Positions 18,862 through 35,763 of a DNA stretch of 64,000 nucleotides are shown here, one piece after another; positions within the stretch are counted from its first letter, which is position 1; each line of letters starts with the position of its first letter. The stretch lies in the sequence record OZ346212.1. One strand, written 5' to 3'. Source of the stretch: a phage. The notes beneath the pieces were generated by a model. It ran no database searches. It had not been told where the DNA came from and worked only from the letters and a program-made list of their open reading frames with translations. The translations under genes were made by a program, and so were the position numbers.

Positions 18862-18890
18862 TTGCAATCCGGTCCTGAATATGGATAATA
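18862..18890 (+). promoter_or_regulatory. sigma70-like promoter (TTGCAA-N17-ATAATA)
   Basis: Read from sequence. Confidence 0.5.
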
Positions 18891-18945
18891 ACAATCAACG
18901 GGGAAACATCCCCACCAACACAAAAACCAGAAAGGAGAAACAAAA

Positions 18946-19146
18946 ATGAGCAACAATATCCGCGTTATTAACTTCAAAAAAGAAGAAAAAATTGCCGTGC
19001 TGATTGACGGTCAAGAAATCTTCAAGGGCGACTATGAAGATCATCAAACGGCGATTAGTATCACTCGCGTGATTGGTTACCATAATTTTTACCCCCAAGG
19101 CGCTGAGGCGGCGGTTAAACGAATCAAAGAGATTGTAGGCCTGTAA
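18946..19146 (+). CDS. hypothetical early protein
   Basis: RBS AAAGGAGA. Confidence 0.5.
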   Translation: MSNNIRVINFKKEEKIAVLIDGQEIFKGDYEDHQTAISITRVIGYHNFYPQGAEAAVKRIKEIVGL

Positions 19147-19149
19147 AAT

Positions 19150-19194
19150 TTATTTTTAGATGGCCTTGACTCTAGGGCCATCAATAAAGTAAAT
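19150..19194 (+). repeat. conserved 45-bp promoter-associated element, copy 3
   Basis: Two substitutions relative to copies 1 and 2. Confidence 0.6.
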
Positions 19195-19233
19195 TTAAAC
19201 CCTGTTAAAATACCACGCAGTTAACAAGGAGTA

Positions 19234-19539
19234 ATGATCATGTTTATCCAGGCTAATAATCTTTATTTCTTTGATGGTCAGATCGTAGATGGTGTGGAAG
19301 TGGAGATCACTGGGTGCCCTGGTGGTCAGGCTATGACTTTTCGGAATAATGCCTTTGATGATTCTCATATCGTTATGAGAATGGAAGTTACAAAGCTGGA
19401 CGACAAGAAAACGCTCATTGACTATTCCGTGAAAGATCATCCAGACTACCACATGATCTATGGTGATTTGTGCATTGTTGACCGTGACAAGGTGGGCGGC
19501 ATTGTGATCGCTATTGTGAACGATGTTTTCTCTGTATAG
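19234..19539 (+). CDS. hypothetical early protein
   Basis: RBS CAAGGAG. Confidence 0.5.
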   Translation: MIMFIQANNLYFFDGQIVDGVEVEITGCPGGQAMTFRNNAFDDSHIVMRMEVTKLDDKKTLIDYSVKDHPDYHMIYGDLCIVDRDKVGGIVIAIVNDVFSV

Positions 19540-19600
19540 TTCCGGCAAATGATGCAAAATAAGGCCCCTAGCAGGGCCTACAGCGATATAATCACATAAA

Positions 19601-19630
19601 GGCCATGCAACCGCATGGCCTTTATTATTT
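19601..19630 (+). terminator. intrinsic terminator
   Basis: GGCCATGC-aacc-GCATGGCC followed by TTTATTATTT. Confidence 0.7.
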
Positions 19631-19678
19631 TGGCGTTACAGCGGCCCCAAGGCGCTTAAAAATTTTTTAAAGAAGTAC

Positions 19679-19706
19679 TTGCATCAAGCCCTACAATATG
19701 GATAAT
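19679..19706 (+). promoter_or_regulatory. sigma70-like promoter (TTGCAT-N16-GATAAT)
   Basis: Read from sequence. Confidence 0.5.
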
Positions 19707-19717
19707 AGGACGTGTCA

Positions 19718-19731
19718 GGGGGGGGGGGGGG
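19718..19731 (+). repeat. G14 homopolymeric tract in 5' leader
   Basis: 14 consecutive G between the -10 box and the RBS of gene 19771. Confidence 0.9.
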
Positions 19732-19770
19732 AGGCCCCAATCATTAACCGGATAGATAGGAGTTAAAACC

Positions 19771-20055
19771 ATGGCTATTGTTACCGCTGGCGATGTAGTA
19801 GAAATGGAAGCAAAATACTTAAAAGCGGGTATGCATATCCTACGCAACGATCTTGAACTGGTCCTGACAATGGTTGACTATAACCCAGGGCAAGATTATC
19901 CAAGTGTTGACTACTTTTTTGAGTATGTTGATGAAGAGTTGAAAGAGGATGAGGCCTATTGCGGTGAGTTCTGCAACTTCTTTTGTCCTGATGAGGTTGT
20001 AAAGGTTATCTATCAACCTGGCGTAGCTTTCCCGCTGCACGCTATCAATAAATAA
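19771..20055 (+). CDS. hypothetical early protein
   Basis: RBS TAGGAG. Confidence 0.5.
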   Translation: MAIVTAGDVVEMEAKYLKAGMHILRNDLELVLTMVDYNPGQDYPSVDYFFEYVDEELKEDEAYCGEFCNFFCPDEVVKVIYQPGVAFPLHAINK

Positions 20056-20117
20056 ACCTGGCGGGGCCGAAAAGGCCCCCGCCTGAAATTATGAAAAATA
20101 AAAAGAGGCAAACTATC

Positions 20118-20351
20118 ATGATGGAACAAATTAAACGCGCTGAGGCTATTAATGGCAATGTAATCTATTTTGTCAGCAAAAACGAAAAAGGCGTACCCTA
20201 TGCGGCGGTAATAGTACAGCCTGACGGCGATTATTGGTGCACTGTGTACGGCGCTTATTCTTTTGGGCGTCCAGTGCATGATAAAATTTTGAAAGTAGCG
20301 AACCCTACCGGGAAAAATATTACAGCAGAAAAATTTTTTGAAAAAAGTTGA
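20118..20351 (+). CDS. hypothetical early protein
   Basis: Start moved to ATG 20118 after RBS AAGAGG. Confidence 0.5.
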   Translation: MMEQIKRAEAINGNVIYFVSKNEKGVPYAAVIVQPDGDYWCTVYGAYSFGRPVHDKILKVANPTGKNITAEKFFEKS

Positions 20352-20375
20352 CATGACCATATAAAACTGTAGTAT
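20348..20375 (+). promoter_or_regulatory. sigma70-like promoter (TTGACA-N16-TAGTAT)
   Basis: Read from sequence. Confidence 0.5.
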
Positions 20376-21563: not shown

Positions 21564-21936
21564 TTATCATTTTTGAGTAAACAATCTATACGTGAACAGT
21601 GAGGCAAGTTAGCAGCCGATAGATTAGATATTAACCTGCAGACTTCTGACCGTCTAGACGTCTAAACGCCCACACAACAAGGATTATACATACAATACTG
21701 AATGTAAACAGGGCCGCAAAAATGCTACCATACCACAGATTGTAAATTTTTCATGCAGCACTTGACAAAGAGGAGAACTTAATTTTATCAGGATAGGCAA
21801 GAATGTCAAGGCATGACTGCTCACTAAACAAGCAAACAGTCATGTGTGGGAGGTAAGTGATTGTGGTGGTAGGAAATTTAGTTGAAAGATGTGTTATAGG
21901 TGCTTCCAGCACTTTAGCCGGGCAGCTAATTGTGTG

Positions 21937-22152
21937 TCAGTCCAGCGGTTCATCCTCTACTTCACTGAAATCAATGTTCATGGTCTCTTCCCAACCATCG
22001 ATCTCAGCACAAGAGTGGAGTTCTTTAGGGTTTACTCCTAAAGCCTCAGCAACAGAGTCTATATTTAACACCTCTGGCAGGTATGATTCATCAAATTCAA
22101 GGTAAATCAGGCCACGAGTGTTGTCAGCTCCACCAAATATTTCTATCTTCAT
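21937..22152 (-). CDS. hypothetical acidic protein
   Basis: ORF track. Confidence 0.45.
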   Translation of the reverse strand: MKIEIFGGADNTRGLIYLEFDESYLPEVLNIDSVAEALGVNPKELHSCAEIDGWEETMNIDFSEVEDEPLD

Positions 22153-22273
22153 AAAATCTCCTCTGGAAATGAGAGTGTGAACAGGGTTTTATACGTCCCA
22201 ATGCACAGGAATTATGCACGTTTTCCTCTTCAGGCCATGCTTTAGCATGAGGAACCTGTGTGGGCTCGGTGCT

Positions 22274-22486
22274 TCATAGTCTACCACCTCTGAACTCTTC
22301 GTGCTCAGGCATAATAGAGAACCAGATATCTACGATGTCCTCCCACGTCAGGTCATCAGCCTCAGGATCTGTCTGGGACGAAGATGAAGAGTCCTCAGAA
22401 TCTAAGTTTTCCTCTTTAACTGGCTCATCCAAGGGACATATGGTCACTCCTTCGGATGTCTCTTCAGATGCATGTGTGTTGATCAT
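22274..22486 (-). CDS. hypothetical acidic protein
   Basis: ORF track. Confidence 0.45.
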   Translation of the reverse strand: MINTHASEETSEGVTICPLDEPVKEENLDSEDSSSSSQTDPEADDLTWEDIVDIWFSIMPEHEEFRGGRL

Positions 22487-22780
22487 GTTCCACCCGTGAG
22501 TATTCCGGCAACAGCTGCTATGGACGTAATGATCATCAGGATCACCACTAAAACTTCGGACAATGTTCTCATTGTGTACTCCATATTCTACAAACTATGT
22601 GTGGATACTATCACTGGATCGGTAATGTGTCAACAGAAACGCCGCGAGGGTTTGGTTAAAATCCGAGCGTATGGTGATTTGGGTCAAAACGGACGTGCGT
22701 TCTCGCTACGCTCGAAAGAGAGATTTGTTTGTAGGAAGCTCTTAAACGCTCTGTAATGAGATTATCTGTCCAAGGTATGC

Positions 22781-22812
22781 AATCGTGCACCAGATAAAGA
22801 AAAGGACGCCAC
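22781..22812 (-). terminator. intrinsic terminator (minus strand)
   Basis: AGGACGC-loop-GCGTCCT followed on minus strand by TTTCTTTAT. Confidence 0.55.
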
Positions 22813-22846
22813 AGAGCGTCCTAGGTGTCTTAAATTTGATATTTTG

Positions 22847-23158
22847 CTATACCCATGAGGGCTTATCAAGGTTGGAGTAGCTGAAAGGTGTCAAAAGGTG
22901 ACTGTCAAAATCTCTCAAACTATCTAAATCTTTTTCCTCGTCCTGACACCATCTGTGCCTACATTTATTGTTGTAGTGCATAGAATGCATAGCGTTCTGC
23001 AACTTAACAGGTACAAGTGATTCAGGAGTAGATAGTATTGTTGGGTATGCCAGAATCACCTCAAACAGTGGAAACACATCGAAACTAAAGTCTACCTCTG
23101 CAGAGGTTGATGGCATATAGGAGTATTTAGCCGCCTTTGTAGACATAATCCACCTCAC
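22847..23158 (-). CDS. hypothetical protein
   Basis: ORF track. Confidence 0.5.
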   Translation of the reverse strand: MRWIMSTKAAKYSYMPSTSAEVDFSFDVFPLFEVILAYPTILSTPESLVPVKLQNAMHSMHYNNKCRHRWCQDEEKDLDSLRDFDSHLLTPFSYSNLDKPSWV

Positions 23159-23481
23159 ACAGGTTTGATAATACCTTTACCGAATAATTCTTCGTATCTA
23201 ATCTTATCCGGATCCCACTCTTGGATAATTTCGAAGACAATATCCAACCCAGGGATAATCACTTCTCCAGTGTCAAGTTTGGCAAGAACAAAACCAGAAG
23301 GCTGAATGGTTTCCCAGTTGCGCCGATTGGAATAGAAGACCTCGAAAATATCGCCGACCTTTATCTGTTGATCAAGATGTTCAAGATTCTCTTTCATATA
23401 GACGCAGCGGATTTTTCGTGCAGGCCATAGACCACCTGCATCACGTTCATTTAGCTCTTTTACAGTAATCGGTATACCCAT
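23155..23481 (-). CDS. hypothetical protein
   Basis: ORF track; ATGA coupling. Confidence 0.5.
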   Translation of the reverse strand: MGIPITVKELNERDAGGLWPARKIRCVYMKENLEHLDQQIKVGDIFEVFYSNRRNWETIQPSGFVLAKLDTGEVIIPGLDIVFEIIQEWDPDKIRYEELFGKGIIKPV

Positions 23482-23534
23482 CTCAAATCTCCTTCATAGA
23501 TAGTAAAGAGGGGCCCAAGCCCCCCTCTTTGTCA

Positions 23535-23840
23535 TCATTCTACAGAGCGTTTGAACAGAATGTCTGCCTCAGACATGTGCTCAACCTCTTCTTCGATTTT
23601 AGCGCGACGTTTTTCAGCCTCATAGCGAATATCGAACTCGGTAGCCACCAGAGATTTGATGAATTTAGGAGAATACAGGTGATCCTGCTTCTCAACGAGA
23701 ATGATATCCTTAATGGCATCTTTCAGATCTTTAATCTGAAGTTGGAGTTCTACCAGTTCTTCGATTGTTTTGCGAAGGCGATCACGCTCTGCAGTGTCAG
23801 AAGGAAGAGAGGTGAACAGTTCAACTTTAGATTTAGCCAT
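23535..23840 (-). CDS. hypothetical protein
   Basis: ORF track. Confidence 0.5.
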   Translation of the reverse strand: MAKSKVELFTSLPSDTAERDRLRKTIEELVELQLQIKDLKDAIKDIILVEKQDHLYSPKFIKSLVATEFDIRYEAEKRRAKIEEEVEHMSEADILFKRSVE

Positions 23841-23868
23841 AGTAAGAGTCTCCTTATGTTGTTTTAAA

Positions 23869-24120
23869 TTAACGTTCTACAAAAATACCGTTCAGTTCAA
23901 TAACCAGGAATTTCTGGTCTTCACTATCGTCTCGTGCCAGCACCTCACAGACGTATCGGTCATCCCCATCATCATCGCAGTCAAATACAAGACTGAGGAC
24001 TTTATCATGGTAAACCTTCGCCACTACCGCCTCGTAAGTATTGCCGATTGTGAATCCAAGATAATCTCCGATGCATTTGACAACAACATGGTCTCCAGCA
24101 TTTAAGTCAATCTTCGTCAT
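23869..24120 (-). CDS. hypothetical protein
   Basis: Start moved to ATG at 24120 after RBS AAGGAG. Confidence 0.5.
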   Translation of the reverse strand: MTKIDLNAGDHVVVKCIGDYLGFTIGNTYEAVVAKVYHDKVLSLVFDCDDDGDDRYVCEVLARDDSEDQKFLVIELNGIFVER

Positions 24121-24247
24121 TACTGCGCTCCTTGGGTAATAATACTGTATGTAAAACTTTAACCAGAGATGTGAATAACGCCCCAAAACACACCGATAGC
24201 GCTAAAACAGACAAGGCCATCATTAAAGCTTCAGTAAAATCAGTCAT
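24107..24247 (-). CDS. small membrane protein (46 aa)
   Basis: Not in ORF track; RBS AGAGGTGAG; hydrophobic core. Confidence 0.4.
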   Translation of the reverse strand: MTDFTEALMMALSVLALSVCFGALFTSLVKVLHTVLLPKERSNDED

Positions 24248-24275
24248 TCCTCACCTCTTGTTAGCCACTATACTA

Positions 24276-24539
24276 TCATTTATCCTTTTCGTCAAGAACT
24301 TTTTTAAATCTTTCAGGGATATCTCCCGTTCTTAGATAGTTCATGACCTCGCAAGGTTCCCACTTGAATTTCTTACAGAGCAGGGCGGCTGAGATTGTTT
24401 CATTGCGAAAAGAAAGGATATTAATATCCCACTCTGAGAACCCCAACTTCCGAAGGGTAGCTACAGAAATCCTCACCGCAACCCAGCAGCAAAAACATGC
24501 AACAAACGCCACTGCTACAACCCACATCAGGATGTTCAT
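24276..24539 (-). CDS. membrane-anchored protein
   Basis: N-terminal TM helix. Confidence 0.5.
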   Translation of the reverse strand: MNILMWVVAVAFVACFCCWVAVRISVATLRKLGFSEWDINILSFRNETISAALLCKKFKWEPCEVMNYLRTGDIPERFKKVLDEKDK

Positions 24540-24628
24540 ATAAGCACCTTACTGAAATACAAGACACAGTGTTAAGGTTACTGACCAGCAAATAATTAGC
24601 AGGACCATTGCAACCTTGGCAAGATTTA

Positions 24629-24916
24629 TCATAGTGCCTCTAAGATTTCATATCCTTCAGGTCGAAATACAAGCCACTCCGTGGCTCCGTTTGGTCGATA
24701 CGCTTTATACAGAACAACCTGATCTCGGCACATGCACATGGCTACATAGTTTTCATCCACACCTGCAGCCTGCATTGCATCTTCTTCTCCGGCAACTGCT
24801 TTGCTTACAACTTCCTTGGTAGGTAGGTGTGCGATCAGCTCGTCACCATCATTAATTCCAAAATGACTGAGTTCTCCATTGGTATCTTTAATCTTAATCT
24901 TAACCAGATCTTTCAT
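24629..24916 (-). CDS. hypothetical protein (small acidic family)
   Basis: ORF track. Confidence 0.5.
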   Translation of the reverse strand: MKDLVKIKIKDTNGELSHFGINDGDELIAHLPTKEVVSKAVAGEEDAMQAAGVDENYVAMCMCRDQVVLYKAYRPNGATEWLVFRPEGYEILEAL

Positions 24917-25245
24917 TAGTCTTTCTCCAGGTTCAAAGGTCCTAAGATTTCATATGCCAGATTAGAAGTTACCAGAGGGTCTTCTGCATCTTTAGTATTG
25001 TACCACCCGTGAATAACCAGAGTCCCACTTTGTTTCATATCCAACTGGAACTGTTCTGCAGTTTCCTCATCCAGCTCCAAGATTTCCATAAGGTATTTGA
25101 TGTTAGGAAGGTATGCAGCTGTTACAGTTCCCTCCACCAAACCTTCGGGCCAACCTACATCCGGATGACAAGTAGGAACCAGGTTGGTCAACTTAATGGT
25201 GTACGCTTTTTCTGCACGAGCCTTCAGTAACGGGTCAATCTTCAT
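24916..25245 (-). CDS. hypothetical protein
   Basis: ORF track. Confidence 0.5.
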   Translation of the reverse strand: MKIDPLLKARAEKAYTIKLTNLVPTCHPDVGWPEGLVEGTVTAAYLPNIKYLMEILELDEETAEQFQLDMKQSGTLVIHGWYNTKDAEDPLVTSNLAYEILGPLNLEKD

Positions 25246-25595
25246 TATTCGTCCTCCTCTTCGGTGCCTGCTTCCAGTAATAAGTTAAGAATATCTTCTG
25301 CACAAGGCTCATAGAACTCTTGGCCTTCATTATCGATGATTTTGTAGTCATCTCCACGAATAATCAGGGGATCACTCTCAAAATTATCGAGACCTTTAAC
25401 AACGACAACACGATCGATTGCCATCATTGTAAGAACTTTATCGACATCTTCCTCTGCTACACCATACTGCAGCAGAATGTCTTTGGTAGGAGGAACAGCA
25501 TCCACCACAACGCCGTTACCAAAACCTTCTGGAAGTTTAGCTAAAATATCTTCCGGAACCACATTCACATCAAAACCGGTAATTTCTACTTTCAT
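25245..25595 (-). CDS. hypothetical protein (MK(V/I)(E/K)I family)
   Basis: ORF track. Confidence 0.5.
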   Translation of the reverse strand: MKVEITGFDVNVVPEDILAKLPEGFGNGVVVDAVPPTKDILLQYGVAEEDVDKVLTMMAIDRVVVVKGLDNFESDPLIIRGDDYKIIDNEGQEFYEPCAEDILNLLLEAGTEEEDE

Positions 25596-25856
25596 TTACA
25601 GCACCTCTTCGTCAACTACTTCATAAAAATGGCCTGGGATTGCAATAGCGTTCTCACCTTCACCTGCAAACACAGTTCCGTCAAGAATCAACATCATAAG
25701 AATTTCTGTAATATCCTCTTCCGGAACGTTGCCAAAACCTTTAATCAGCTCGTAGGTTGGAATATTTACATCTAAGATGTCACCATCTTTAGAACGGAAA
25801 TCAACACCGTCCTGAATCTCTGCCGTTTCAAGGTTTTTCAATTTAATCTTCATCAA
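25596..25856 (-). CDS. hypothetical protein (MK(V/I)K family)
   Basis: ORF track. Confidence 0.5.
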   Translation of the reverse strand: MMKIKLKNLETAEIQDGVDFRSKDGDILDVNIPTYELIKGFGNVPEEDITEILMMLILDGTVFAGEGENAIAIPGHFYEVVDEEVL

Positions 25857-25932
25857 TCGGTCTCCTGTCTTGTTAAGATGAAGGTATTATTTCACACAGG
25901 GTTGGCGTTGTCAACACCTGTGTGCAAGAAAA

Positions 25933-26328
25933 TTACTGAAACAGTGCGGATAAATTACCTTCTGGTGGGAACTTATCTGCCAAAAACGGTGTTAGCACAG
26001 TAGCCTTCTGAAGATCTGGGGTCCACTCGTTGTTCAGAACATCCCAGTAGTACGCAATGTTGCTGTGTGGGTGCCGCATTACGAACTTTTTCCCTTCGTA
26101 GTCGTCTGAAACCTCTACAGAAGAAATAACAACAGAATCTTCAAGGGTTTCTTCATAGAAAGATCCCCCTTCAAATTTCCAACGAGATGCAAGAGCCCCT
26201 GCCTTGAACGCTGCAGATAACGGACTGTCGGCAAGAACATACATTTCTTGCACTCTGTCGCTGCGATCTTTGCTTCTTACGTTGTATACAGTATCTGAGC
26301 TATACTCAACACGGTATAGGCTTACCAT
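25933..26328 (-). CDS. hypothetical protein, paralog of 28140..28538
   Basis: Shared FV(M/I)(R/V)HP.S...YW.....(E/T)WTP block. Confidence 0.55.
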   Translation of the reverse strand: MVSLYRVEYSSDTVYNVRSKDRSDRVQEMYVLADSPLSAAFKAGALASRWKFEGGSFYEETLEDSVVISSVEVSDDYEGKKFVMRHPHSNIAYYWDVLNNEWTPDLQKATVLTPFLADKFPPEGNLSALFQ

Positions 26329-26660
26329 TACCGCACCTCCTCAATAACTTCCACATCTGAACCTACCACAAATGCAAAAGGACAGGTTTCATGAAAGACA
26401 TCTGGATCGCCGCCAAGCTTGCTAACAATCTCTCCACCACTAATAAACACAAGCTCACCGATATTCATCAGATTGCTGAAATAGTAACCATAATGATTAA
26501 AGAATGCAGCAGGGTCAGGTAGACTGGTAGCCTCAAGCACTACATCGGTTGAGGTTACTTTCTTATCATAACCTCTCGCCTTTTGAGATGCAAGATCTGC
26601 AGAATCCTCAGGAGACCGGAGATGCACAGGAATTGTTTCACCAATAAAGCGTACTTTCAT
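26328..26660 (-). CDS. hypothetical protein
   Basis: ORF track; start uncertain (26660 or 26687). Confidence 0.45.
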   Translation of the reverse strand: MKVRFIGETIPVHLRSPEDSADLASQKARGYDKKVTSTDVVLEATSLPDPAAFFNHYGYYFSNLMNIGELVFISGGEIVSKLGGDPDVFHETCPFAFVVGSDVEVIEEVR

Positions 26661-26664
26661 ATTA

Positions 26665-26928
26665 TCACCCAACAACCATAGCTTCAAAAGGAGTCATGAA
26701 CGAATAAACGGCATCATCATCTGCTTCAGGGAATGCTCCCAAAGACTTCATATCTGAACCCTTGACAAATACAAGGTTTTGATCAAAGGCTTCTTGGGGG
26801 TCAATCCGATACATATTTCGTAGAATATCGCTTACCTCCTCATCAAGAGGTGAGTATGCTGTGCACGTTTTTCCGATCAAGCTTTGAGAATCAGGGTATC
26901 CACCTGAAGTTTTAAAATAAACAATCAT
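26665..26928 (-). CDS. hypothetical protein
   Basis: ORF track. Confidence 0.5.
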   Translation of the reverse strand: MIVYFKTSGGYPDSQSLIGKTCTAYSPLDEEVSDILRNMYRIDPQEAFDQNLVFVKGSDMKSLGAFPEADDDAVYSFMTPFEAMVVG

Positions 26929-27019
26929 ATAGTATCACCTCTGGTAAGAGATTGGGATTCCTTTCCCACAAATAATTACAAATCTTCCTTATCGAGGAAG
27001 TATGCTAATCCAAGCAGGA

Positions 27020-27289
27020 TTATTCCTCTACAATCTCATACACATCAGGAGTTACAATCAACTCTTCTCCGTTACCCGGTGCAACAAACACCACCAAACC
27101 TTCAGGTGTGTGCTTTTTAGCCATCTCGATAACATCTTCTCGCAGAGCTGGCTCCATCAGATCAAAACCTTCACCCAGGGCATCACGAACCACCTTCATA
27201 TAGTCAACTGGTTGTGCTTCAACAATCATGCCTTCAACCAGTCCACAGTTTTTGTCTGCCAGCTCAGTTTTGAATAATTTAATTTTCAT
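27020..27289 (-). CDS. hypothetical protein (MKIK family)
   Basis: ORF track. Confidence 0.5.
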   Translation of the reverse strand: MKIKLFKTELADKNCGLVEGMIVEAQPVDYMKVVRDALGEGFDLMEPALREDVIEMAKKHTPEGLVVFVAPGNGEELIVTPDVYEIVEE

Positions 27290-27315
27290 TTAGAGGTCTC
27301 CTCAATTATTTGATA

Positions 27316-27417
27316 TTAATAGCCGTAACCTAACACATTAACTACAACTGCGATTGCAAACATAATTTCAAAGCATGCAATCTCTACATTTGGGACTAAT
27401 TTCTTAATCACACCCAT
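27316..27417 (-). CDS. small membrane peptide (33 aa)
   Basis: Not in ORF track; RBS GGAGAATGAGG; hydrophobic. Confidence 0.4.
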   Translation of the reverse strand: MGVIKKLVPNVEIACFEIMFAIAVVVNVLGYGY

Positions 27418-27426
27418 TGTAGCACC

Positions 27427-27747
27427 TCATTCTCCAAAGTCAATCTTTACTTTGCCTTTCCCCTTACCTTTCTTTCCACCGCATTTAGCCAGCTGACGTG
27501 CTGCAACATCTACCATACGGTCAGTTGCCTCGTAAGCATCACTGCCTTTAGCCTTGGCAATAACTTCTTTTCCAGAATTGTCAAAAATGAACGCCATAAC
27601 TTCCTGGTGATCATTTTCAACTTTTACACTTACACGTGCATAGTTAACAGAGGGATGTAAACGCTCCAGCTTGGACATTTTGCGGGAAATAAAAGATACC
27701 ATACCTTCTGTGATTTCTACATTGTTGCCAGTGATTTCAATTTGCAT
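27427..27747 (-). CDS. hpf: ribosome hibernation promoting factor (HPF/RaiA family)
   Basis: MQIEITGNNVEITEGM...KLER...YEATDRMVDVAARQLAK aligns along its length with E. coli HPF as I recall it (MQLNITGNNVEITEAL...KLEQ...YAAIDGLIDKLARQLTK). Confidence 0.8.
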   Translation of the reverse strand: MQIEITGNNVEITEGMVSFISRKMSKLERLHPSVNYARVSVKVENDHQEVMAFIFDNSGKEVIAKAKGSDAYEATDRMVDVAARQLAKCGGKKGKGKGKVKIDFGE

Positions 27748-27796
27748 AACGTGTTCCTTTTAAGGAAGAGGGAATAACTATCTCTCTTTGAAAACA

Positions 27797-27825
27797 ATGA
27801 TACTAAATCTGAAGCGTTGTGTCAA
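27797..27825 (-). promoter_or_regulatory. sigma70-like promoter for hpf (TTGACA-N17-TATCAT)
   Basis: Read on minus strand. Confidence 0.5.
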
Positions 27826-27831
27826 CAGTTT

Positions 27832-28122
27832 TTACAGCTTGTTGTCGATAGTTTTTAAAATATCCACAGCAAGATCTGCCATTTTTCGAACATACTCTGC
27901 AAACTCAACAGGATCCTTGATCAAAGAATTCACAGGGTCGTACCCTAGAGCGTTTAAAATGGCTGCAGCATCTACAACCTTCTCATCATTTGCGAAGATC
28001 TCTCCGTCAAACTTGTAGGTCTATTTTGAGTCAACCTTAGCAGAGCAGGGTTTGTCCATGCTTGTTACACCATCGTCTTTAAACTCTCCTGCGTTATCAA
28101 TATTTAGAATTAAATCCATCAT
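27832..28122 (-). pseudogene. ORF interrupted by in-frame TAG (33 aa + amber + 62 aa)
   Basis: ATG 28122..28120; TAG at 28023..28021 in frame; same frame stays open to TAA at 27834..27832. Confidence 0.4.
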
Positions 28123-28139
28123 GGTGACACCTCACTGTT

Positions 28140-28538
28140 TCAGTTTAGCTTTTCTTCAACAACCCCATAACTTGGGGCAGAGTCAAGAGCTTTCTGGTTT
28201 AAAAGTGGCGTAGCAGAATCTGCAAACGGTGTCCAAGTTTTTGTTCTGGAATTCCAGTAATGCTTCACTCTGGAATCTGGATGCACTATAACAAAAACTT
28301 TTTCACTTGTCAACACATTAATTTCTTCTACACCCTTGCTGATAATTTCTCCGTCATAGCCCCCAGTCTGGTATCCTTCGTACCAGGTTCTTGCATAGGC
28401 ATAGCCAGCCTGCCAGCATGCAGCCTCCTCCGAGGTGGAGACTACGTAGAAGTCTTTCTCAAATTCCGGAATACGCCCTTGCTTTACGCTCCAAGCTCCG
28501 CGAATTTTCATTGTTACTTTGAAAAGCTTGTTCTTCAT
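28140..28538 (-). CDS. hypothetical protein, paralog of 25933..26328
   Basis: Shared motif block. Confidence 0.55.
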   Translation of the reverse strand: MKNKLFKVTMKIRGAWSVKQGRIPEFEKDFYVVSTSEEAACWQAGYAYARTWYEGYQTGGYDGEIISKGVEEINVLTSEKVFVIVHPDSRVKHYWNSRTKTWTPFADSATPLLNQKALDSAPSYGVVEEKLN

Positions 28539-28539
28539 A

Positions 28540-28794
28540 CTACCGCTCTACAATCTCTACGTCTGTTCCTACACCGAAGGCATAGTAATGTTCTTCCCCA
28601 AAGTAATACTTGGGGACACCCGCTTTGATCAGATCTAACCCGCGAATAAATACCACACCGTGTGATACAGTGGAATGCTTCTGACGCACAGGATCGTTGT
28701 CAGGCAACCATTCAAAGTACACCGCAGGTACAACCTTTCCCTTCAGGAAGGATTGTCCCAAGTAGACGTTAGAATCAAGAATTTTAACCTTCAT
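28540..28794 (-). CDS. hypothetical protein (MKVK family)
   Basis: Paralog of 28784..29011 and 32434..32667. Confidence 0.5.
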   Translation of the reverse strand: MKVKILDSNVYLGQSFLKGKVVPAVYFEWLPDNDPVRQKHSTVSHGVVFIRGLDLIKAGVPKYYFGEEHYYAFGVGTDVEIVER

Positions 28795-29011
28795 TCTCGT
28801 CCTCCACTATCTCTGCATCCTCACCAAGGGCAAAGTTGTAGGTCCACTGGCTGTCAAAGCAGTCCTGAGATGCACCAGCGGCAATAAGATCTGCACCTTT
28901 TATTTTTAAAAGGTCAGGATAATCTTCGTTAGGGATAGCGGTAAACACTTTCCCCACTAAGGGCTCCTGACCAATATAGAAGCTTGAATCTAAAACTTTA
29001 ACTTTCATCAA
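28784..29011 (-). CDS. hypothetical protein (MKVK family)
   Basis: ORF track. Confidence 0.5.
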   Translation of the reverse strand: MMKVKVLDSSFYIGQEPLVGKVFTAIPNEDYPDLLKIKGADLIAAGASQDCFDSQWTYNFALGEDAEIVEDENEG

Positions 29012-29295
29012 CGGTCTCCCTCAGGCGGTTGTGGGACGTAAACACTGTTACGAATATCGTCAGCAGTGTAGTAATAAGTGGTTCCAACCCTATCTCGGGC
29101 TGCAATGTACTCTGCTATACCAACAAGTGCCATTGATTTGGTGGCGTATCTTCCCCACTCGTTAGCTCCCCAGTAGAATTTAGACCAGTAGGGAATAAGA
29201 CCGAACAAATATACCTTTTGACGAACTTCCCAGTAAGTGCCTTTTCCGACAAGTTTAAACTCTACTTCACTACTGTTAATCTTTTTCATTATCAA
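29008..29295 (-). CDS. hypothetical protein
   Basis: ORF track; ATGA coupling. Confidence 0.5.
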   Translation of the reverse strand: MIMKKINSSEVEFKLVGKGTYWEVRQKVYLFGLIPYWSKFYWGANEWGRYATKSMALVGIAEYIAARDRVGTTYYYTADDIRNSVYVPQPPEGDR

Positions 29296-29588
29296 TCTCC
29301 CTCTACCGTGGTCGGATTGTCAGTAAGAAATTGAGCATTGGCTGGAGGCACGCCTGACATTTTCCACACAACCATAAGTTTATAACCAGGCACTCTATTA
29401 AGTGCAGATCGAGTAGAGTTTGTGCACGTATACTTTCGCTTTCCAAACCCGTTCTCCATCATAATCCAGTACCCAGTATCTTTGTCACCAGGTATCGGTA
29501 GACCACCTTCATCAACCCACTGAATTGACCACGGCACGATGGCTACAGCTTTATATTTAAACTTTTTAAACCACTCAAAAAGTTTCAT
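29292..29588 (-). CDS. hypothetical protein
   Basis: ORF track. Confidence 0.5.
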   Translation of the reverse strand: MKLFEWFKKFKYKAVAIVPWSIQWVDEGGLPIPGDKDTGYWIMMENGFGKRKYTCTNSTRSALNRVPGYKLMVVWKMSGVPPANAQFLTDNPTTVEGD

Positions 29589-29888
29589 AATTCAGCCCCG
29601 CATAGACATAATCACTATAAATAGGCAAACAATGAATCCGAATGCCACGCCACCCATAAACGTTAATATTGATGCAATCATAGTCAATCAGCCTCGCCTG
29701 GCAACTCTTCTACCTTAACATGCCGAAAAGTGTTACCGTAATGGTTGATCCATGACATCAGCTCACTTTCTTGCTCTTCCTCTGGGATGAACTCTCGAAT
29801 ACTGACAAGTTTTAAGAAAACCTAATCACAATCTGCACCCATTCTACCAGACAGACAATAGTGCTTCATAAAAACCCTCCCGCCCGGT

Positions 29889-30083
29889 TTAGAATATTGC
29901 TTCTTCCATTGCGCCTGAGAGCAACAAAGAGGTGATCTGGCTAACATTCATCTCAGACTCTACTTCCTCCCCTTTGAAAGGTTCGCGGCAGAATAGGACT
30001 GTTTCAGGACTTTTACTTCGAACAATATAATACAAATCATTCAATGTGTTGTAGTAATAAGTGTTAAAACGTAAGTTTTTCAT
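29889..30083 (-). CDS. hypothetical protein
   Basis: ORF track. Confidence 0.45.
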   Translation of the reverse strand: MKNLRFNTYYYNTLNDLYYIVRSKSPETVLFCREPFKGEEVESEMNVSQITSLLLSGAMEEAIF

Positions 30084-30367
30084 TTTCTAGTCCTCTTCTT
30101 AGATTTTTGGGGAGAAACGCTTTCTGCAATACGAGACAGACGTTCTTCTGAAGCCTTACCTACTCCAGGTTTTTTGAGTGGATTATCTTTATGACCACAA
30201 TCCAACTGGATATTGGATACCTCTCCAACTTTGTAAGTCAATTCTAGCAAAAGGTTGTCGTCCTTGTCAAATGTTTTTACGATAAATTTTTTATCGTTCT
30301 CCTGAACTTCATATCTGGTACCTGCAGTATACAGCATGGTGCCATCAGCATAGGATATCCAGATCAT
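30080..30367 (-). CDS. hypothetical protein
   Basis: ORF track. Confidence 0.5.
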   Translation of the reverse strand: MIWISYADGTMLYTAGTRYEVQENDKKFIVKTFDKDDNLLLELTYKVGEVSNIQLDCGHKDNPLKKPGVGKASEERLSRIAESVSPQKSKKRTRK

Positions 30368-30711
30368 TGAGCCTCCTTTTGCTGCAACAGCATTAACTCT
30401 TTGTTAGAGATCTTTACTGCTGTTTTTATTGTTCCATCTTCACGAAACCACGACCAGAACTCTACAGTGTCACCACTATCAAGTAAAGCATGCCCATGGT
30501 AAAAATCTTTGTCCTTAGACAGTTTCTCATCTATATCTGCATCAACACATTCGTGATCCAGAGCATTTTGCCTGAACGCATCGGTTATGCCAATGCACGC
30601 CTTGCTCTCAAGACTGGTATATCCGATATCTTTTAATTCAGTTTCCCAAGTCCAGTACCCTATAAAAGCTAAAACAGCTACCCACAGTAATAACGTTTTA
30701 ATCTTTGGCAT
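30364..30711 (-). CDS. secreted/membrane-anchored protein
   Basis: N-terminal signal-like hydrophobic segment. Confidence 0.5.
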   Translation of the reverse strand: MPKIKTLLLWVAVLAFIGYWTWETELKDIGYTSLESKACIGITDAFRQNALDHECVDADIDEKLSKDKDFYHGHALLDSGDTVEFWSWFREDGTIKTAVKISNKELMLLQQKEAQ

Positions 30712-30773
30712 TCTCTCTACCTCTTTCTTAGTTTATTTCACTATGGCACATCCTTTGTGCCATATCTCAACTA

Positions 30774-31244
30774 CTACTTAAATAGTAGTTCAAAATAGTG
30801 CAAAATTAACAGAAGTTGAACTACACCTAGTGCAACGGCGAGTATGTTAATCTTAGAATCGAAAAACTTCTTAACTTTTACTCTAAAAGGTTCCTTAATG
30901 TCCTTTACGATCCTATCTATAGATGACCTCATATCTCTGATTACCATCCTGAACATTAAAGACGGATGCTCCCCCATCTCCGTAACGGAATCGAAAACAT
31001 ACTCTCTTCGGTCATAAGGGCCGCCAGCTCTGCGTATTAACCTCTCCACAGAGACCTCGAACGTCACACCTGTAACGTAATCATCTATAACAAGTCGTGA
31101 CGGGTCTTTACCTTTACTATCAAGAGGTATCAAAGTTATCTTTCCAGATTTTGTTAAAATTTCCCCTTTTTCAAGCAAGGTGTACCAATGCTCTCTGCCA
31201 AGACTGTTGAGGCACGTTTTTACATATTTAACAAACATCGTCAC
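30774..31244 (-). CDS. hypothetical protein with C-terminal TM helix
   Basis: ORF track. Confidence 0.5.
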   Translation of the reverse strand: MTMFVKYVKTCLNSLGREHWYTLLEKGEILTKSGKITLIPLDSKGKDPSRLVIDDYVTGVTFEVSVERLIRRAGGPYDRREYVFDSVTEMGEHPSLMFRMVIRDMRSSIDRIVKDIKEPFRVKVKKFFDSKINILAVALGVVQLLLILHYFELLFK

Positions 31245-31444
31245 CCCTCATCGCACGTCTGATATAACCACTCTATAAAATCTTGATACCATTCGCCCTC
31301 TGAGCGCTCCGTAGGCCAATAATCTTCACCCTCTCGTGCATTAAAATCTGAGTATTCAACTTTCCACTCCTTTACCAGCTCGTGGAGAAGGTTTTCAGCC
31401 TGCTCTAAAGATTTATTTTTTACCATTGCTGTCTCCTTTTTCAA
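31241..31444 (-). CDS. hypothetical protein
   Basis: ORF track. Confidence 0.5.
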   Translation of the reverse strand: MKKETAMVKNKSLEQAENLLHELVKEWKVEYSDFNAREGEDYWPTERSEGEWYQDFIEWLYQTCDEG

Positions 31445-31509
31445 GATAGTTATACATCAGAACTGCACCACCTAAGATGGCTACCAGTAACAATATCCCA
31501 GATAGCATC

Positions 31510-31662
31510 TCAATAAACATGGCTTGAAACACTGGAAGGTCTCCCTAAATTAACGCACCATTTTAAATACATGCTCTTTTCCCATAAAGGTGCCTGGCTA
31601 AGATCTGCGTAGAACGCAATCTCTTTAAGAACAGTATAGATAGTTTTAGGTGCGGTCTCCAT
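31510..31662 (-). CDS. hypothetical protein
   Basis: Start moved to ATG at 31662 after RBS AGGAAGGAGA. Confidence 0.35.
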   Translation of the reverse strand: METAPKTIYTVLKEIAFYADLSQAPLWEKSMYLKWCVNLGRPSSVSSHVY

Positions 31663-31873
31663 CCCTACTCTCCTTCCTGATATTCTTGTAGTAATCAACT
31701 AGGCACATTATTACGATGAAGATAACAACAGGCCAAAAAGGTGCAGCAGTGATGATGGTGATAAAATCATCAAACTTCACCCTTCGTCTGGACACGATGC
31801 ATACACCTGTCAAGAATACCGCTGTTATAACGGACATTACCAGGTAACCTATTAGCACAACATTTATACTCAT
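31646..31873 (-). CDS. two-TM membrane protein
   Basis: Two hydrophobic helices, charged C-terminus; holin-like topology but no adjacent lysin. Confidence 0.5.
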   Translation of the reverse strand: MSINVVLIGYLVMSVITAVFLTGVCIVSRRRVKFDDFITIITAAPFWPVVIFIVIMCLVDYYKNIRKESRDGDRT

Positions 31874-31903
31874 TGGTCCTCCCTTTGTAGGTTAAATTGT
31901 ATA

Positions 31904-32437
31904 CTACAAATGGTCGCTGAGGGTGTCAAGAAAATTATCCCGTTCTTTCTCAGAGTTTTCATGTGTGTAGCTGAAAAACATATCGAGAATAACCTTATTG
32001 ATATATTCCAGCTCCTCTGTGTTCAGATGCTTAGCAGGATCTACAATGACATCCCAAATATCATACAGACCGCACTCATGATACCCATAACGCCACTCAA
32101 TTGTCAAGCTGAGCGGCAAATCTTTACCTTCACAAACAACCTTCCATCTACATATGTTGGTATCTGGTCGTACCTGTGCACGGTACACCTGCACAAAATC
32201 CAATTTGAATTTGAGGTACTCGTCATACAATTTAAGCACAAAGCTCTCGATTTGTGGAGACACTTTTGCAGCAAACTGTGCGTATTCGTACTTGCACTGG
32301 ATGATCTTTCTGCGTTTTGCAGTTAAATTTTTTGCCGCCAGTTGTTCTTCAGTGTATCTCCACCTACGATCAACAAACGCAACAGGGTCTTTGTCCCCAT
32401 AGAGGTCTTCCCAGTTAATCAGAAGCATACCTGTCAC
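31904..32437 (-). CDS. hypothetical protein
   Basis: ORF track. Confidence 0.55.
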   Translation of the reverse strand: MTGMLLINWEDLYGDKDPVAFVDRRWRYTEEQLAAKNLTAKRRKIIQCKYEYAQFAAKVSPQIESFVLKLYDEYLKFKLDFVQVYRAQVRPDTNICRWKVVCEGKDLPLSLTIEWRYGYHECGLYDIWDVIVDPAKHLNTEELEYINKVILDMFFSYTHENSEKERDNFLDTLSDHL

Positions 32438-32667
32438 TCCTCCACAACTTCAAGGCCTTTACCGCCTCGCTCTGGCAGATTACTTAAAGATAGGTAATAC
32501 ATATAATCAGGAGAGATCCTGCCAGACTCTGCACCTGCAGCTAGTAAATCCTTCCCTTTAACCAGGACAACATTCTCGTTTGCAGATAGCCGTTTTGCTT
32601 CCACAATTTTACCAACACAGTCAACCAAGGAAGGGTACCCTAAATCTGTAAGAAATTTAACTTTCAT
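32434..32667 (-). CDS. hypothetical protein (MKVK family)
   Basis: ORF track. Confidence 0.5.
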   Translation of the reverse strand: MKVKFLTDLGYPSLVDCVGKIVEAKRLSANENVVLVKGKDLLAAGAESGRISPDYMYYLSLSNLPERGGKGLEVVEE

Positions 32668-32704
32668 GCTACCTCCTACCTACCGTCCCTGGTAAGATAA
32701 ATTA

Positions 32705-33103
32705 TTACTGAACAGAGCGCGGTGCTGGGAAGGATAACTCTTCTAAAGAGAAGATTTCATTTCCTACCACCCAAGTTGCTGGGTCATCTGGATCAACAGG
32801 TTGGATAATCATTACCTCATCCGCCTCGCACACACGTTTCCCACCCATAGTAGCGTCAGCCACTAACATACGCGGCTCTTCAGAAATGCACAGGTAGCCA
32901 CCTCGGCCCACTGTTCCTTCCACGGGATCCTGCCCTTTGACCACAATGAATACCTTCTCTCCTGTGGCGATATTACTTTTCACACTAACAGTTTGACCAA
33001 CTTTAGATGTACCGATCTTGGTGGCTTCAAACATTAAATCCCGAATTACTGTTGCATAGTTGCCGGACACTTTCTTACCTTCTTTAGTAATCTCAATCTT
33101 CAT
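32705..33103 (-). CDS. hypothetical protein
   Basis: ORF track. Confidence 0.5.
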   Translation of the reverse strand: MKIEITKEGKKVSGNYATVIRDLMFEATKIGTSKVGQTVSVKSNIATGEKVFIVVKGQDPVEGTVGRGGYLCISEEPRMLVADATMGGKRVCEADEVMIIQPVDPDDPATWVVGNEIFSLEELSFPAPRSVQ

Positions 33104-33339
33104 AACCTAGGCTCCTTAAATGAATCTATGTAATCAATTAAATCCCAAGCATCGCGATGGGCTGTCAGAGGGTATACTTCTCCGAGAGGGATCATAGCAA
33201 TAAGTCTATCAAAAACCCAGTCTGGACGCAACATTTTATGGTGATATTCCCACTCACCTTCCACAGATTTTTTCTGAGTGATCAGGATCTCTGTGTAGTG
33301 TTTCGCCTGTCTTGAGTAGATTGAAAATGACTTGTACAT
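33100..33339 (-). CDS. hypothetical protein
   Basis: Start moved to ATG at 33339. Confidence 0.45.
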   Translation of the reverse strand: MYKSFSIYSRQAKHYTEILITQKKSVEGEWEYHHKMLRPDWVFDRLIAMIPLGEVYPLTAHRDAWDLIDYIDSFKEPRL

Positions 33340-33374
33340 AAAGACCCCCTCTTGTTGAAAACAACAATACACAA

Positions 33375-33659
33375 CTACCAGGTTACTGTCAAGTAGGCAA
33401 CCGTATTATTTTTCTCTGGGGAGATGCCAACAACATCTACCTGCAGACCTCCTGCCCTTAAATCTCCAACAATGTGCGGGAAGTAATCTGAGAGATGCGA
33501 GGGTAGATTTATCGAAAATCCGCACCCCAGAAAGCCTGCTAACGCTTTATTTTGTATCTCCCCTACAATCGCATCATAAATGGAGTTAAGCTCGTCAGGG
33601 AGCGTTACAGGACGTTTTAGCGCTAACTGGTGTAATTTGTCCTTAGCACTCATTTTCAT
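33375..33659 (-). CDS. hypothetical protein
   Basis: Start ATG 33659 overlaps upstream TGA (ATGA). Confidence 0.5.
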   Translation of the reverse strand: MKMSAKDKLHQLALKRPVTLPDELNSIYDAIVGEIQNKALAGFLGCGFSINLPSHLSDYFPHIVGDLRAGGLQVDVVGISPEKNNTVAYLTVTW

Positions 33660-34189
33660 TTCAGGTCTACCTCTGGTGGTGCCAACCACATAAATGGCGG
33701 CAAGCCTAAACGGTTTTTCTTATCCCACACAAAATATGCATATGCTTGCCCGTCAGTTCTGCCATTTGATTGAAAAGATGGACGCTTAGATATTGTGATC
33801 ACAGTGGTAGGTGCATTATCAAGCCACCATTCAAATCTGGCTTTGCTTTCCAGAAAATTAAGACGCAAAAGCATAATAACTACGTCAGCATCTTTCAACG
33901 CCTTGTCTACAAACTCACGAGCCAAACTGTATGGTGGGTTGGTGATAATACAGTCAACATGGTTGTATTCTGTATTCAGATAGTCAACACCTTCTTGGAT
34001 TTCTCCCCATGCAGATCCTAACGGCATACGGGAGTAGAACACACCTGAGGCACTATTCCTGCAAGGCTCTAAGTAGGTCCAGTCTTCTGGGAACGGAATA
34101 AGGTCATACAGCCCTTCTGCACACCACTCCGGTGTCACATACTCATCGTAGGCGTTACGTTGTTCATCAGGTTTTCGAGCACAAGTCAT
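33656..34189 (-). CDS. DNA N6-adenine (or N4-cytosine) methyltransferase, small phage type
   Basis: Catalytic motif IV in VDCIITNPPYSLA. Confidence 0.6.
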   Translation of the reverse strand: MTCARKPDEQRNAYDEYVTPEWCAEGLYDLIPFPEDWTYLEPCRNSASGVFYSRMPLGSAWGEIQEGVDYLNTEYNHVDCIITNPPYSLAREFVDKALKDADVVIMLLRLNFLESKARFEWWLDNAPTTVITISKRPSFQSNGRTDGQAYAYFVWDKKNRLGLPPFMWLAPPEVDLK

Positions 34190-34240
34190 GCAAATCTCCA
34201 GATCATAAAAGCCCTCCGAAGAGGGCTTTAGAATTAATGT

Positions 34241-35290
34241 TTAAGCTTCTTCGACAATTCCTGCACCCAGGATTTTTTCATTGAGCTCTTTTGCTGTTTT
34301 AATAATATTGTCCACCAGACGCTTGCGAGTCTTATCTTTTACCTTAACCTCTTCACCGCCGTTCAGGGTTGTCTTCAATTGGGACAGAATGTCTTGAAGT
34401 TCAACGACAGAGAATCGCTGCAGATCTTCTGAGGTAATCTCGCCTAAGGCAATCTTAACGGTCTCACCACTTTCCATCTGCAGGTTCAGGAACACAGTGT
34501 GAACATCACCTTTCGAACCACCCGCTTTTGCAGATTCAACAGCATGAACTAGCTCATCTAAAGAGGTGCACTGGTGAATCTCCGGAAGACCTGCTTCACC
34601 TAGCACACCTTCTTCATCACCTTTTGCCAAAAGCTTTTTAGGTTTTTGTCCGTTCTGGATGCGTTGTATGTTGCCTTCATCCAGAATGATAGCTCCAGTT
34701 CGAGCTGCCAGCTCCTCTCCGTCCAACCACACTTCGCCACCCGCTGTGATGGATGCGATCTCATCTTCTGTCAGCACCCAACCGTAGTATTTTTCGATCA
34801 GGCGTTCGAAACGTTTTTTCCAGTAGCTGACCTGAGTATTCATGTTCACACCATTGCCATAAGTGCCGCCTTGATAGTAGTGGAACATAAACTCTGTGTC
34901 CGGAGCCACAGTGCGTTCTTTGCAACCCAGCCATAGGATTGTTCCAGCAGAGCAGCACATCCCTTCAGCATGTGCAACAACGCTTGCCTGAGACTCGCGG
35001 AATGCCTGTAGATAAGCCATTGCAATGTGCACGCAACCCCCAGGGCTATTGATGATCACACGAATGCTTTCTTCCGGCTGAGCCATACGGATCGTCTGCA
35101 GACGAGACATATGATCCTGCAGGTCCTCCAAATCGTCGATATAAAGAACGTGGTCAACAACAGGTGTTGGGTAGCTGTATGTTTCCATAATACCACCCGG
35201 CATACCAAACATTTTATTACTCATAGGTTCGAAACCGTTCTGTTTTTCTTTCATGCCGTGTACCATGGTTCTGCGAGGTGTTAAATTCAT
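34241..35290 (-). CDS. ClpP-family serine peptidase with C-terminal extension
   Basis: IINSPGG, GMCCSAG (Ser), MFHYYQGG (His) parallel ClpP INSPGG / GQAASMG / MIHQPLGG; ~130 extra C-terminal residues. Confidence 0.7.
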   Translation of the reverse strand: MNLTPRRTMVHGMKEKQNGFEPMSNKMFGMPGGIMETYSYPTPVVDHVLYIDDLEDLQDHMSRLQTIRMAQPEESIRVIINSPGGCVHIAMAYLQAFRESQASVVAHAEGMCCSAGTILWLGCKERTVAPDTEFMFHYYQGGTYGNGVNMNTQVSYWKKRFERLIEKYYGWVLTEDEIASITAGGEVWLDGEELAARTGAIILDEGNIQRIQNGQKPKKLLAKGDEEGVLGEAGLPEIHQCTSLDELVHAVESAKAGGSKGDVHTVFLNLQMESGETVKIALGEITSEDLQRFSVVELQDILSQLKTTLNGGEEVKVKDKTRKRLVDNIIKTAKELNEKILGAGIVEEA

Positions 35291-35350
35291 GAGAAATCCT
35301 TAATATTGGAAGTTGAAAGCTATTTATTTAAACCTGATTCACATTTACCT

Positions 35351-35662
35351 TTATTTAGCAATCACTATGGAATACTTACGATTGTCAGAAGCATCACAAC
35401 TCAATGATTGCCAGTCTACCACATACCACGTATCATTGTCAACAATTACTTTATCGCCTGTTCTGTAGCAAGTGCTGCTTTCAATAATTCGAGACTCGAT
35501 AAAGAATCTGTGTCGGCGCTCACGTAGCAACGCTAAGTTAATTATATTACCACCGCTGTCCTTGGTCCACACATTCTTGGATCCCTTATTTGCCAAAATT
35601 GTCTCGCCGTTATAGACAAACAGGCAGTATATTTTATTCAGTTTCTCTTGTATTGTAGCCAT
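35351..35662 (-). CDS. hypothetical protein
   Basis: ORF track. Confidence 0.5.
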   Translation of the reverse strand: MATIQEKLNKIYCLFVYNGETILANKGSKNVWTKDSGGNIINLALLRERRHRFFIESRIIESSTCYRTGDKVIVDNDTWYVVDWQSLSCDASDNRKYSIVIAK

Positions 35663-35763
35663 ACTGTCCTTCTCTCTGTTTTGTCCGATAATAATATCTA
35701 AAGCTTACCTATTTGTCAACAACTGTTTTAGATATTTAAGGGTGGAATAACCACCCTTCTGTA

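Follow-up and report, generated by a model that had tools for sequence, protein, structure and literature searches.

The closest described relatives of the gene considered here are found in the rV5-like myoviruses (Vequintavirus, ~137 kb). In DQ832317, the record of rV5, this gene figures as ORF 144, with a promoter annotated as 'Sigma70-type promoter; P144'. Kropinski et al. (2013; PMC3606486) listed gp144 with PF02482 and P144 with a 29-nt sequence identical to the one described below, and hpf has been mentioned in five rV5 isolates 'as already described' (Mathieu et al., 2020). HPF genes of rV5-like phages and of phage GAP32 were described by Mizuno et al. (Nat Commun 2019, PMC6375957), who proposed that viral HPF may keep dimers from forming by competing with the homologues of the cell. 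They produced the rV5 protein from pBAD24 in E. coli NM522 and detected peptides of it in the crude extract; the high-salt 70S and 100S fractions contained none, the amount of 100S particles was unchanged, and high-salt washing suffices to explain this negative result according to the authors themselves (Mizuno et al., PMC6375957). The published negative is not decisive, because it was obtained with high-salt washes and in uninfected growing cells. A search of the literature yielded no later experimental work on phage HPF, nor a transcriptome or a proteome time course for any Vequintavirus.

Cellular members of the family occupy the 30S decoding channel of vacant ribosomes and touch 16S rRNA with basic patches on helices alpha-1 and alpha-2, and short HPF of gammaproteobacteria turns RMF-induced 90S particles into 100S dimers. 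A recent structural survey describes five basic residues of alpha-2, namely K80, R83, K87, K89 and K91, as rRNA contacts that are strictly conserved (bioRxiv 10.1101/2025.10.07.680626). In E. coli HPF, R33 contacts the E-site tRNA, and the C-terminus follows the E-site mRNA position, where K93 touches the E-site tRNA and His95 stacks on G693 at the E-site codon position (Beckert et al., 2018, bioRxiv 10.1101/382572). Binding of S. aureus HPF depends on the K26/Q29 and K80/R83 equivalents together; it survived mutation of a single patch and was abolished only once all four residues had been mutated (PMC4889938).

The gene, its family and its surroundings

The DNA analysed, hereafter the window, is a stretch of 64,000 nucleotides (record OZ346212.1) from an rV5-like Vequintavirus. 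Over the 1.8 kb flanking the HPF gene, the identity to Escherichia phages nomo, rV5_ev146, naswa and others, which all belong to Vequintavirus, is 99%. Within the phage collection the protein occurs in 119 records, the same tally being obtained for matches to the surrounding 1.8 kb, and the gene is present in essentially every rV5-like genome. The names given to the protein across the 119 records include 'sigma 54 modulation factor', 'ribosome hibernation promoting factor' and 'RaiA', and in some records the genuine HPF gene goes by 'ATP-dependent protease La Type I'. A protein identical to the 106-aa product is public as 'ribosome hibernation factor [Escherichia phage HeinrichReichert]', is found on 218 contigs and is shared by phages HeinrichReichert, slur16, V18 and others. 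Eighteen GenBank records entitled 'Campylobacter phage' (MG0656xx), for which C. jejuni is given as the host, match positions 26800..28600 of the window at 97-99% identity, and the host and organism labels of these records look unreliable. The gene itself, the family to which it is assigned, its promoter and a hypothesis on its role have thus all been published already, and nothing in them is new as first stated; what is added here is the purifying selection, the nearest cellular homologue at 44% identity, the greater likeness of the core to HPF than to RaiA, the loss of K80 and K89 and the replaced C-terminus.

The coordinates of the locus are collected in Table 1. The preliminary description had reported a 106-aa reading frame with a lysine-rich tail that aligns over its full length with HPF/RaiA, and this description holds: the product (MQIEITGNNVEITEGMVSFISRKMSKLERLHPSVNYARVSVKVENDHQEVMAFIFDNSGKEVIAKAKGSDAYEATDRMVDVAARQLAKCGGKKGKGKGKVKIDFGE) was recovered with exactly that sequence, including the ...CGGKKGKGKGKVKIDFGE tail, both family profiles are matched above their cutoffs and the family fold is predicted. 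In Pfam the protein matches PF02482 (Ribosomal_S30AE) with 56.7 bits against a cutoff of 23.7 (E 4e-15), residues 3-89 being aligned to profile positions 1-83 of 88, and TIGR00741 (HPF/YfiA family) is matched with 56.8 bits against a cutoff of 40.9. Its best solved relatives are the E. coli HPF chains 2rql, 4v8h and 6h4n (E ~1e-15, residues 1-90 aligned). An AlphaFold2 model built on 70 homologues predicts strands at residues 2-8, 34-44, 47-56 and 61-68 and helices at 14-30 and 71-90, with a core pLDDT of ~90; a Foldseek comparison of this model with the PDB gives HPF/YfiA/pY proteins for all of the top 35 matches, V. cholerae HPF 4hei standing first (TM 0.94, rmsd 1.1 A) and 2rql/6h4n of E. 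coli HPF also ranking among the best. The protein is almost certainly a full-length member of the HPF/YfiA family.

Within this family, comparison of the core with E. coli HPF gives 43% identity and comparison with RaiA 25% (residues 1-89 of the HPF reference agree with the PDB match), with PDB E-values of 4e-15 and 0.02, respectively. The NCBI name 'RaiA' was rejected as a statement of orthology because the core lies far nearer to HPF. The equivalog models of both cellular proteins score below their cutoffs, with 65.2 bits against 125 for gammaproteobacterial short HPF (YhbH, NF007780) and 22.8 bits against 158 for RaiA/YfiA (NF007654). The C-terminal dimerisation domain of ~60-90 residues that characterises long HPF (Gram-positive/Thermus) is absent, the phage protein stopping at residue 106, and so is the K-x-K-L-K-x-H C-terminus that ends short HPF at ~95 aa.

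Table 1. Features of the HPF locus in the window and of its counterpart in a divergent phage.
Feature	Position	Strand	Remarks
Predicted sigma-70-type promoter	27797..27825	-	identical to rV5 P144; 11/12 consensus positions
Predicted -35 and -10 hexamers	TTGACA 27825..27820; TATCAT 27802..27797	-	17-nt spacer
Short hairpin in predicted 5'UTR	27766..27788	-	arms AAGAGAG / CCCTCTT
Shine-Dalgarno sequence AAGGAA	27754..27759	-	6 nt 5' of ATG; kept in relatives
HPF/YfiA-family CDS, rV5 gp144 homologue	27427..27747	-	ATG start; 106 aa + stop
HPF domain core	27481..27747	-	AF2 pLDDT ~90; Foldseek matches to HPF structures
Gly/Lys-rich basic tail, residues 90-106	27430..27480	-	GGKKGKGKGKVKIDFGE; predicted disordered, AF2 pLDDT <50 at 92-106
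33-aa hydrophobic peptide gene, rV5 gp145 homologue ('membrane protein, 1 TMD')	27316..27417	-	own GAGGTG Shine-Dalgarno sequence
89-aa acidic protein gene, rV5 gp146 homologue	27020..27289	-	
Terminator-like hairpin, 3' of 89-aa gene	26984..27000	-	weak candidate for the end of the unit; poor T-run (ATTTGTAATT)
P0004 locus, divergent rV5-like phage	L004 4001..4312		Logan ERR6997038 contig, 125.8 kb

The minus-strand promoter that had been proposed for the gene (27825..27797) is borne out as a prediction by near-consensus hexamers at that place, which is the P144 of rV5, and the proposed AAGGAA lies at 27759..27754, 6 nt ahead of the ATG. The promoter falls within the 84-nt gap behind the stop codon of the upstream gene (27834..27832). 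Both hexamers are kept in ten relatives, in which the spacer and the 5'UTR vary, and the -35 hexamer, directly behind the upstream stop, is also kept in the lineage whose protein is 65% identical; that divergent lineage (L004) has GAGGGA at the position of AAGGAA. The hairpin in the predicted 5'UTR has a 7-bp consensus stem in 6 relatives and one pair that is kept through a two-sided change, its covariation being weak. No measured transcription start site for the gene was found in the literature, and the promoter is a prediction. Across the window the motif TTGACA-N16-18-TAnnnT occurs 37 times, where 2.8 occurrences would be expected, each copy lying on the same strand as the genes around it, and the HPF gene lies within a block of small genes that carries many such sigma-70-type motifs. 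These 37 motifs run, e.g., along 1380..20375 (+), 21782..57799 (-) and 59945..63526 (+), with strand switches near 21 kb and 58-59 kb, a distribution that fits large gene blocks transcribed by the host RNA polymerase. A further promoter-like site in the 3' end of the HPF gene (27443..27416) was taken as a chance occurrence; it is unable to serve the 33-aa peptide gene, because its -10 hexamer overlaps the ATG of that gene.

The 33-aa peptide gene begins 9 nt past the HPF stop codon and is probably co-transcribed with HPF; it is not obligatorily linked to it, since it is absent 3' of HPF in the divergent lineage L004. The 89-aa gene is probably the last of the transcription unit, whose likely order is P144-HPF-gp145-gp146. 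Terminator-like hairpins in the region are not more numerous than expected from shuffled sequence. The 89-aa protein has no Pfam match and no similarity to a neighbouring small protein, and its naming as a second 'sigma 54 modulation factor' in the records of nomo, naswa, nom and APCEc02 was rejected as a propagated mislabel, since the protein is without a Pfam match.

Upstream of the HPF gene, the homologue of rV5 gp143 (27832..28122) carries a TGG->TAG change at 28021..28023 (-), an amber codon that splits it into 33-aa fragments, while in nomo, rV5, JES2013, FFH2, nom and YN3 the gene is intact with 96 aa; the change represents a genuine nonsense mutation or else an error in the sequence. 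Three tRNA genes lie at 63585..63955 (+), namely Arg-TCT, Tyr-GTA and Ser-TGA, and no suppressor tRNA for the amber codon was found within the window. Small proteins around the HPF cassette (25933..26328, 28140..28538, 28540..28794 and 28784..29011, all -) form paralogue pairs, the 131-aa and 132-aa proteins being 28% identical (E 5e-11) and the 84-aa and 75-aa proteins 41% identical (E 7e-17), and none of them has a Pfam match.

Conservation and isolation of the phage lineage

The HPF gene is under strong purifying selection: in pairs among eleven relatives, dN/dS ranges from 0.02 to 0.12, with dS up to 0.9, and the gene is therefore maintained for a function. This bears on the reading that the gene is a non-functional passenger, or a sigma-54 regulator as its historical name has it, which is scarcely credible. 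The label 'sigma 54 modulation factor' does persist in many records, and is the point in its favour; the low dN/dS and the retention of the gene across the genus and in a divergent lineage speak against a passenger, and the solved structures of the family are ribosome complexes. The 'sigma-54' name of the family goes back to hpf being part of the rpoN operon.

The divergent lineage is represented by P0004, a 103-aa HPF homologue that is syntenic and likewise lies behind a TTGACA in an rV5-like phage. By BLASTP, P0004 and the window protein share 64% identity, other measures giving 65-66%, and P0004 is filed under Escherichia coli in NCBI. The phage that carries it is absent from the phage collection, its DNA being 73-80% identical to known phages over just one third of 8 kb.

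Beyond these two lineages the relationship drops sharply. An exhaustive HMMER search covered 1.84 billion representatives; the phage proteins fall there into a single 50% cluster, and the next best protein is 44% identical, this also being the identity of the nearest cellular homologue. A word-indexed protein search and a scan of IMG/VR returned the phage clade alone (5 proteins, 2 loci) and no cellular relatives. By these comparisons the phage HPF is an old, isolated lineage, and its transfer from a host is old. A recent host transfer, as Mizuno et al. read their alignment, was accordingly rejected, given at most 44% identity outside the cluster and saturated dS between the phage lineages.

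Putative ribosome contacts, the basic tail and possible modes of action

The residues by which the protein could touch rRNA were read from an alignment with 87 cellular short-form homologues. Kept in the phage protein are the equivalents of E. coli K23, K26, R83, K87 and K91 and a basic residue at 29, so that in phage numbering the retained basic surface consists of K23, K26, R29, R84, K88 and K92. Others are gone. The position of E. coli K80 holds V in the rV5 type and T in P0004, and that of K89 holds G or S in the two phage lineages, these positions being basic in 77/87 and 78/87 of the cellular homologues, respectively. R17, basic in 74/87 homologues, is V in the phage proteins, and R33, which contacts the E-site tRNA, is S or T. 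Only 3/87 cellular homologues lack the basic residues of both K80 and K89, and a loss of canonical ribosome binding in the phage protein is therefore plausible as far as the alignment can tell.

The main rival to ribosome binding starts from this loss. It holds that the HPF fold has been neofunctionalised, no longer binding the decoding channel and acting instead on another RNA, or as a decoy of host RMF, HPF, RaiA or a defence protein, and we regard it as unlikely, if a serious contender. It would agree with the disappearance of K80, K89, R17, R33 and His95 from both phage lineages, with their long isolation (the nearest cellular homologue standing at 44%), with a purifying selection by which some function is evidently kept, and with the failure to find peptides in 70S or 100S fractions despite expression (PMC6375957). 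Against it, most of the basic surface is kept, S. aureus HPF went on binding after mutation of one patch (PMC4889938), the high-salt washing would by itself account for the published negative (PMC6375957), and an alternative partner is suggested by no data.

The C-terminus has been replaced as well. Where E. coli HPF ends in ...KHKDKLKQH, the phage protein ends in ...KCGGKKGKGKGKVKIDFGE and is ~10 residues longer. Its tail has a pI of 10.0, with 6 K and 2 D/E, and differs in length by 1-3 residues among relatives through the number of repeats, the window variant having one extra Asn compared with rV5 gp144 (GNN vs GN). The tail of the divergent lineage is different in sequence and equally basic, with the end KWDY against KIDF in the rV5 type. 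Frameshifted tails are found in Murica (L013 201..500) and APCEc02 (L014 201..506), with products of 99 aa and 101 aa; they stem from single-base length differences in the run GGGGAAAGG, whose equivalent in the window lies at ~27455..27463, and are likely to be sequencing errors or rare frameshifts. The idea that the tail is dispensable, as these truncations might suggest, was rejected, since they come down to single-base differences in the GGGGAAAGG run.

The explanation that we prefer, although as a whole it commands our belief only by half, is that gp144 is a Vequintavirus homologue of short HPF that acts on ribosomes in a modified manner. The unmodified host RNA polymerase would produce it early in infection, together with the 33-aa membrane peptide and the 89-aa protein, the early timing being deduced from the promoter type only. 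The protein would dock in the tRNA/mRNA (A/P-site) channel of idle 30S or 70S particles, as HPF and RaiA do, by means of the equivalents of E. coli K23, K26, R83, K87 and K91, and the loss of the K80 and K89 contacts and of His95 would make the binding of the core weaker and salt-sensitive. Beyond the E site, the longer Lys/Gly tail would follow the path of the mRNA in the direction of the platform, a course extrapolated from the structures of E. coli HPF and RaiA. Because K80, K89 and His95 are lost and a longer tail is gained, weaker, salt-sensitive core binding and RaiA-like behaviour would be expected: the protein might occupy 70S monomers in competition with host HPF, RaiA and RMF, and the proposed position of the tail argues for this behaviour rather than for promotion of 100S dimers. 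The gain for the phage could lie in the control or protection of the host ribosome pool. The suggestion of the preliminary description that a phage HPF could shut down or protect host ribosomes would be weakened in part by the lack of ribosome association in the published test (PMC6375957). The mode proposed here would reconcile the sequence with that negative high-salt experiment; that the protein binds ribosomes in this way during infection we judge, from sequence and from analogy, to be nearly but not quite an even call.

A canonical promoter of 100S dimers, which like E. coli HPF would act with host RMF and shut off host translation through dimerisation, is very unlikely. The core does stand nearer to short HPF than to RaiA in both identity and PDB E-value. 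Yet the score stays under the HPF equivalog cutoff, and a global shut-off would hit the phage mRNAs too. RMF is scarce in growing cells, and a phage HPF made early would be unlikely to form 100S dimers alone. In addition, expression had no discernible effect on 100S particles (PMC6375957), and the C-terminus is unlike that of HPF, being longer, in the manner of the RaiA tail, which progresses towards the RMF site (bioRxiv 10.1101/2025.10.07.680626).

The opposite role has been suggested by Mizuno et al., whose proposal can be read as an anti-hibernation factor, i.e., a weak or reversible competitor of HPF and RaiA that frees the hibernating ribosomes of a starved host for phage mRNAs. This idea is already published (PMC6375957), and weakened core contacts together with a basic tail would fit a low-affinity, fast-exchanging competitor; moreover, gut, manure and sewage are the sources of rV5-like phages, and in such places many hosts do not grow. 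A weaker binder would, however, compete poorly unless present in large excess, and the small 100S population was unaffected (PMC6375957), and we consider the reading quite unlikely. A more specific version, in which the rRNA contacts of the core are weakened through the loss of K80 and K89 and the tail with its conserved K-[I/W]-D-[F/Y] end threads the mRNA exit path, occupies the RMF/anti-Shine-Dalgarno region and evicts or excludes RMF, HPF and RaiA, the protein being an anti-hibernation or ribosome-capture factor, appears improbable to a similar degree; if it were true, the phage could wake and use the ribosomes of starved, non-growing E. coli in the gut. Few phage genes act on the ribosome, which makes a working phage HPF worth study, also with regard to the handling of dormant hosts by phages, and the lost rRNA-contact lysines, the replaced C-terminus and the conserved basic tail under purifying selection offer concrete mutants for the question of ribosome binding.

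Comparison with known systems

The nearest known system is rV5 gp144 (ABI79209), along with the other Vequintavirus proteins named 'HPF'. It is the same gene, with 97-100% protein identity, the same neighbours (gp143, gp145 and gp146) and the identical promoter P144, and nothing of substance differs between rV5 and the window apart from the amber codon in the gp143 homologue of the latter. The HPF proteins of jumbo phages, such as Cronobacter phage GAP32 (K4F6Q6) and Escherichia phage PBECO4 (L7TII8), share the fold family and were acquired separately: they are 21-26% identical when aligned by structure and belong to PHROG 8990, whereas the window protein is in PHROG 12469; Mizuno et al. likewise set the GAP32 HPF elsewhere in the tree (PMC6375957).

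E. coli RaiA (YfiA, protein Y) has the same fold and belongs to the same binding-site family, and both RaiA and the phage protein carry a flexible C-terminal extension of similar length past the end of short HPF, which in RaiA points to the RMF site and prevents 100S formation. The likeness ends there: identity is 25%, the RaiA model scores 22.8 bits against a cutoff of 158, and the RaiA tail is acidic at its end, while that of the phage protein is strongly basic and shows no relationship to it in sequence. E. coli HPF/YhbH (2rql, 4v8h, 6h4n) has the same fold, is collinear over residues 1-90 at 43% identity and begins with an N-terminus almost identical to that of the phage protein (MQIEITGNNVEITEG vs MQLNITGNNVEITEA). 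From E. coli HPF to the phage protein, K80 is replaced by V, K89 by G, R17 by V and R33 by S, the C-terminal KDKLKQH with its His95 gives way to a 17-residue Gly/Lys tail, and the pI rises from 6.5 to 9.0.
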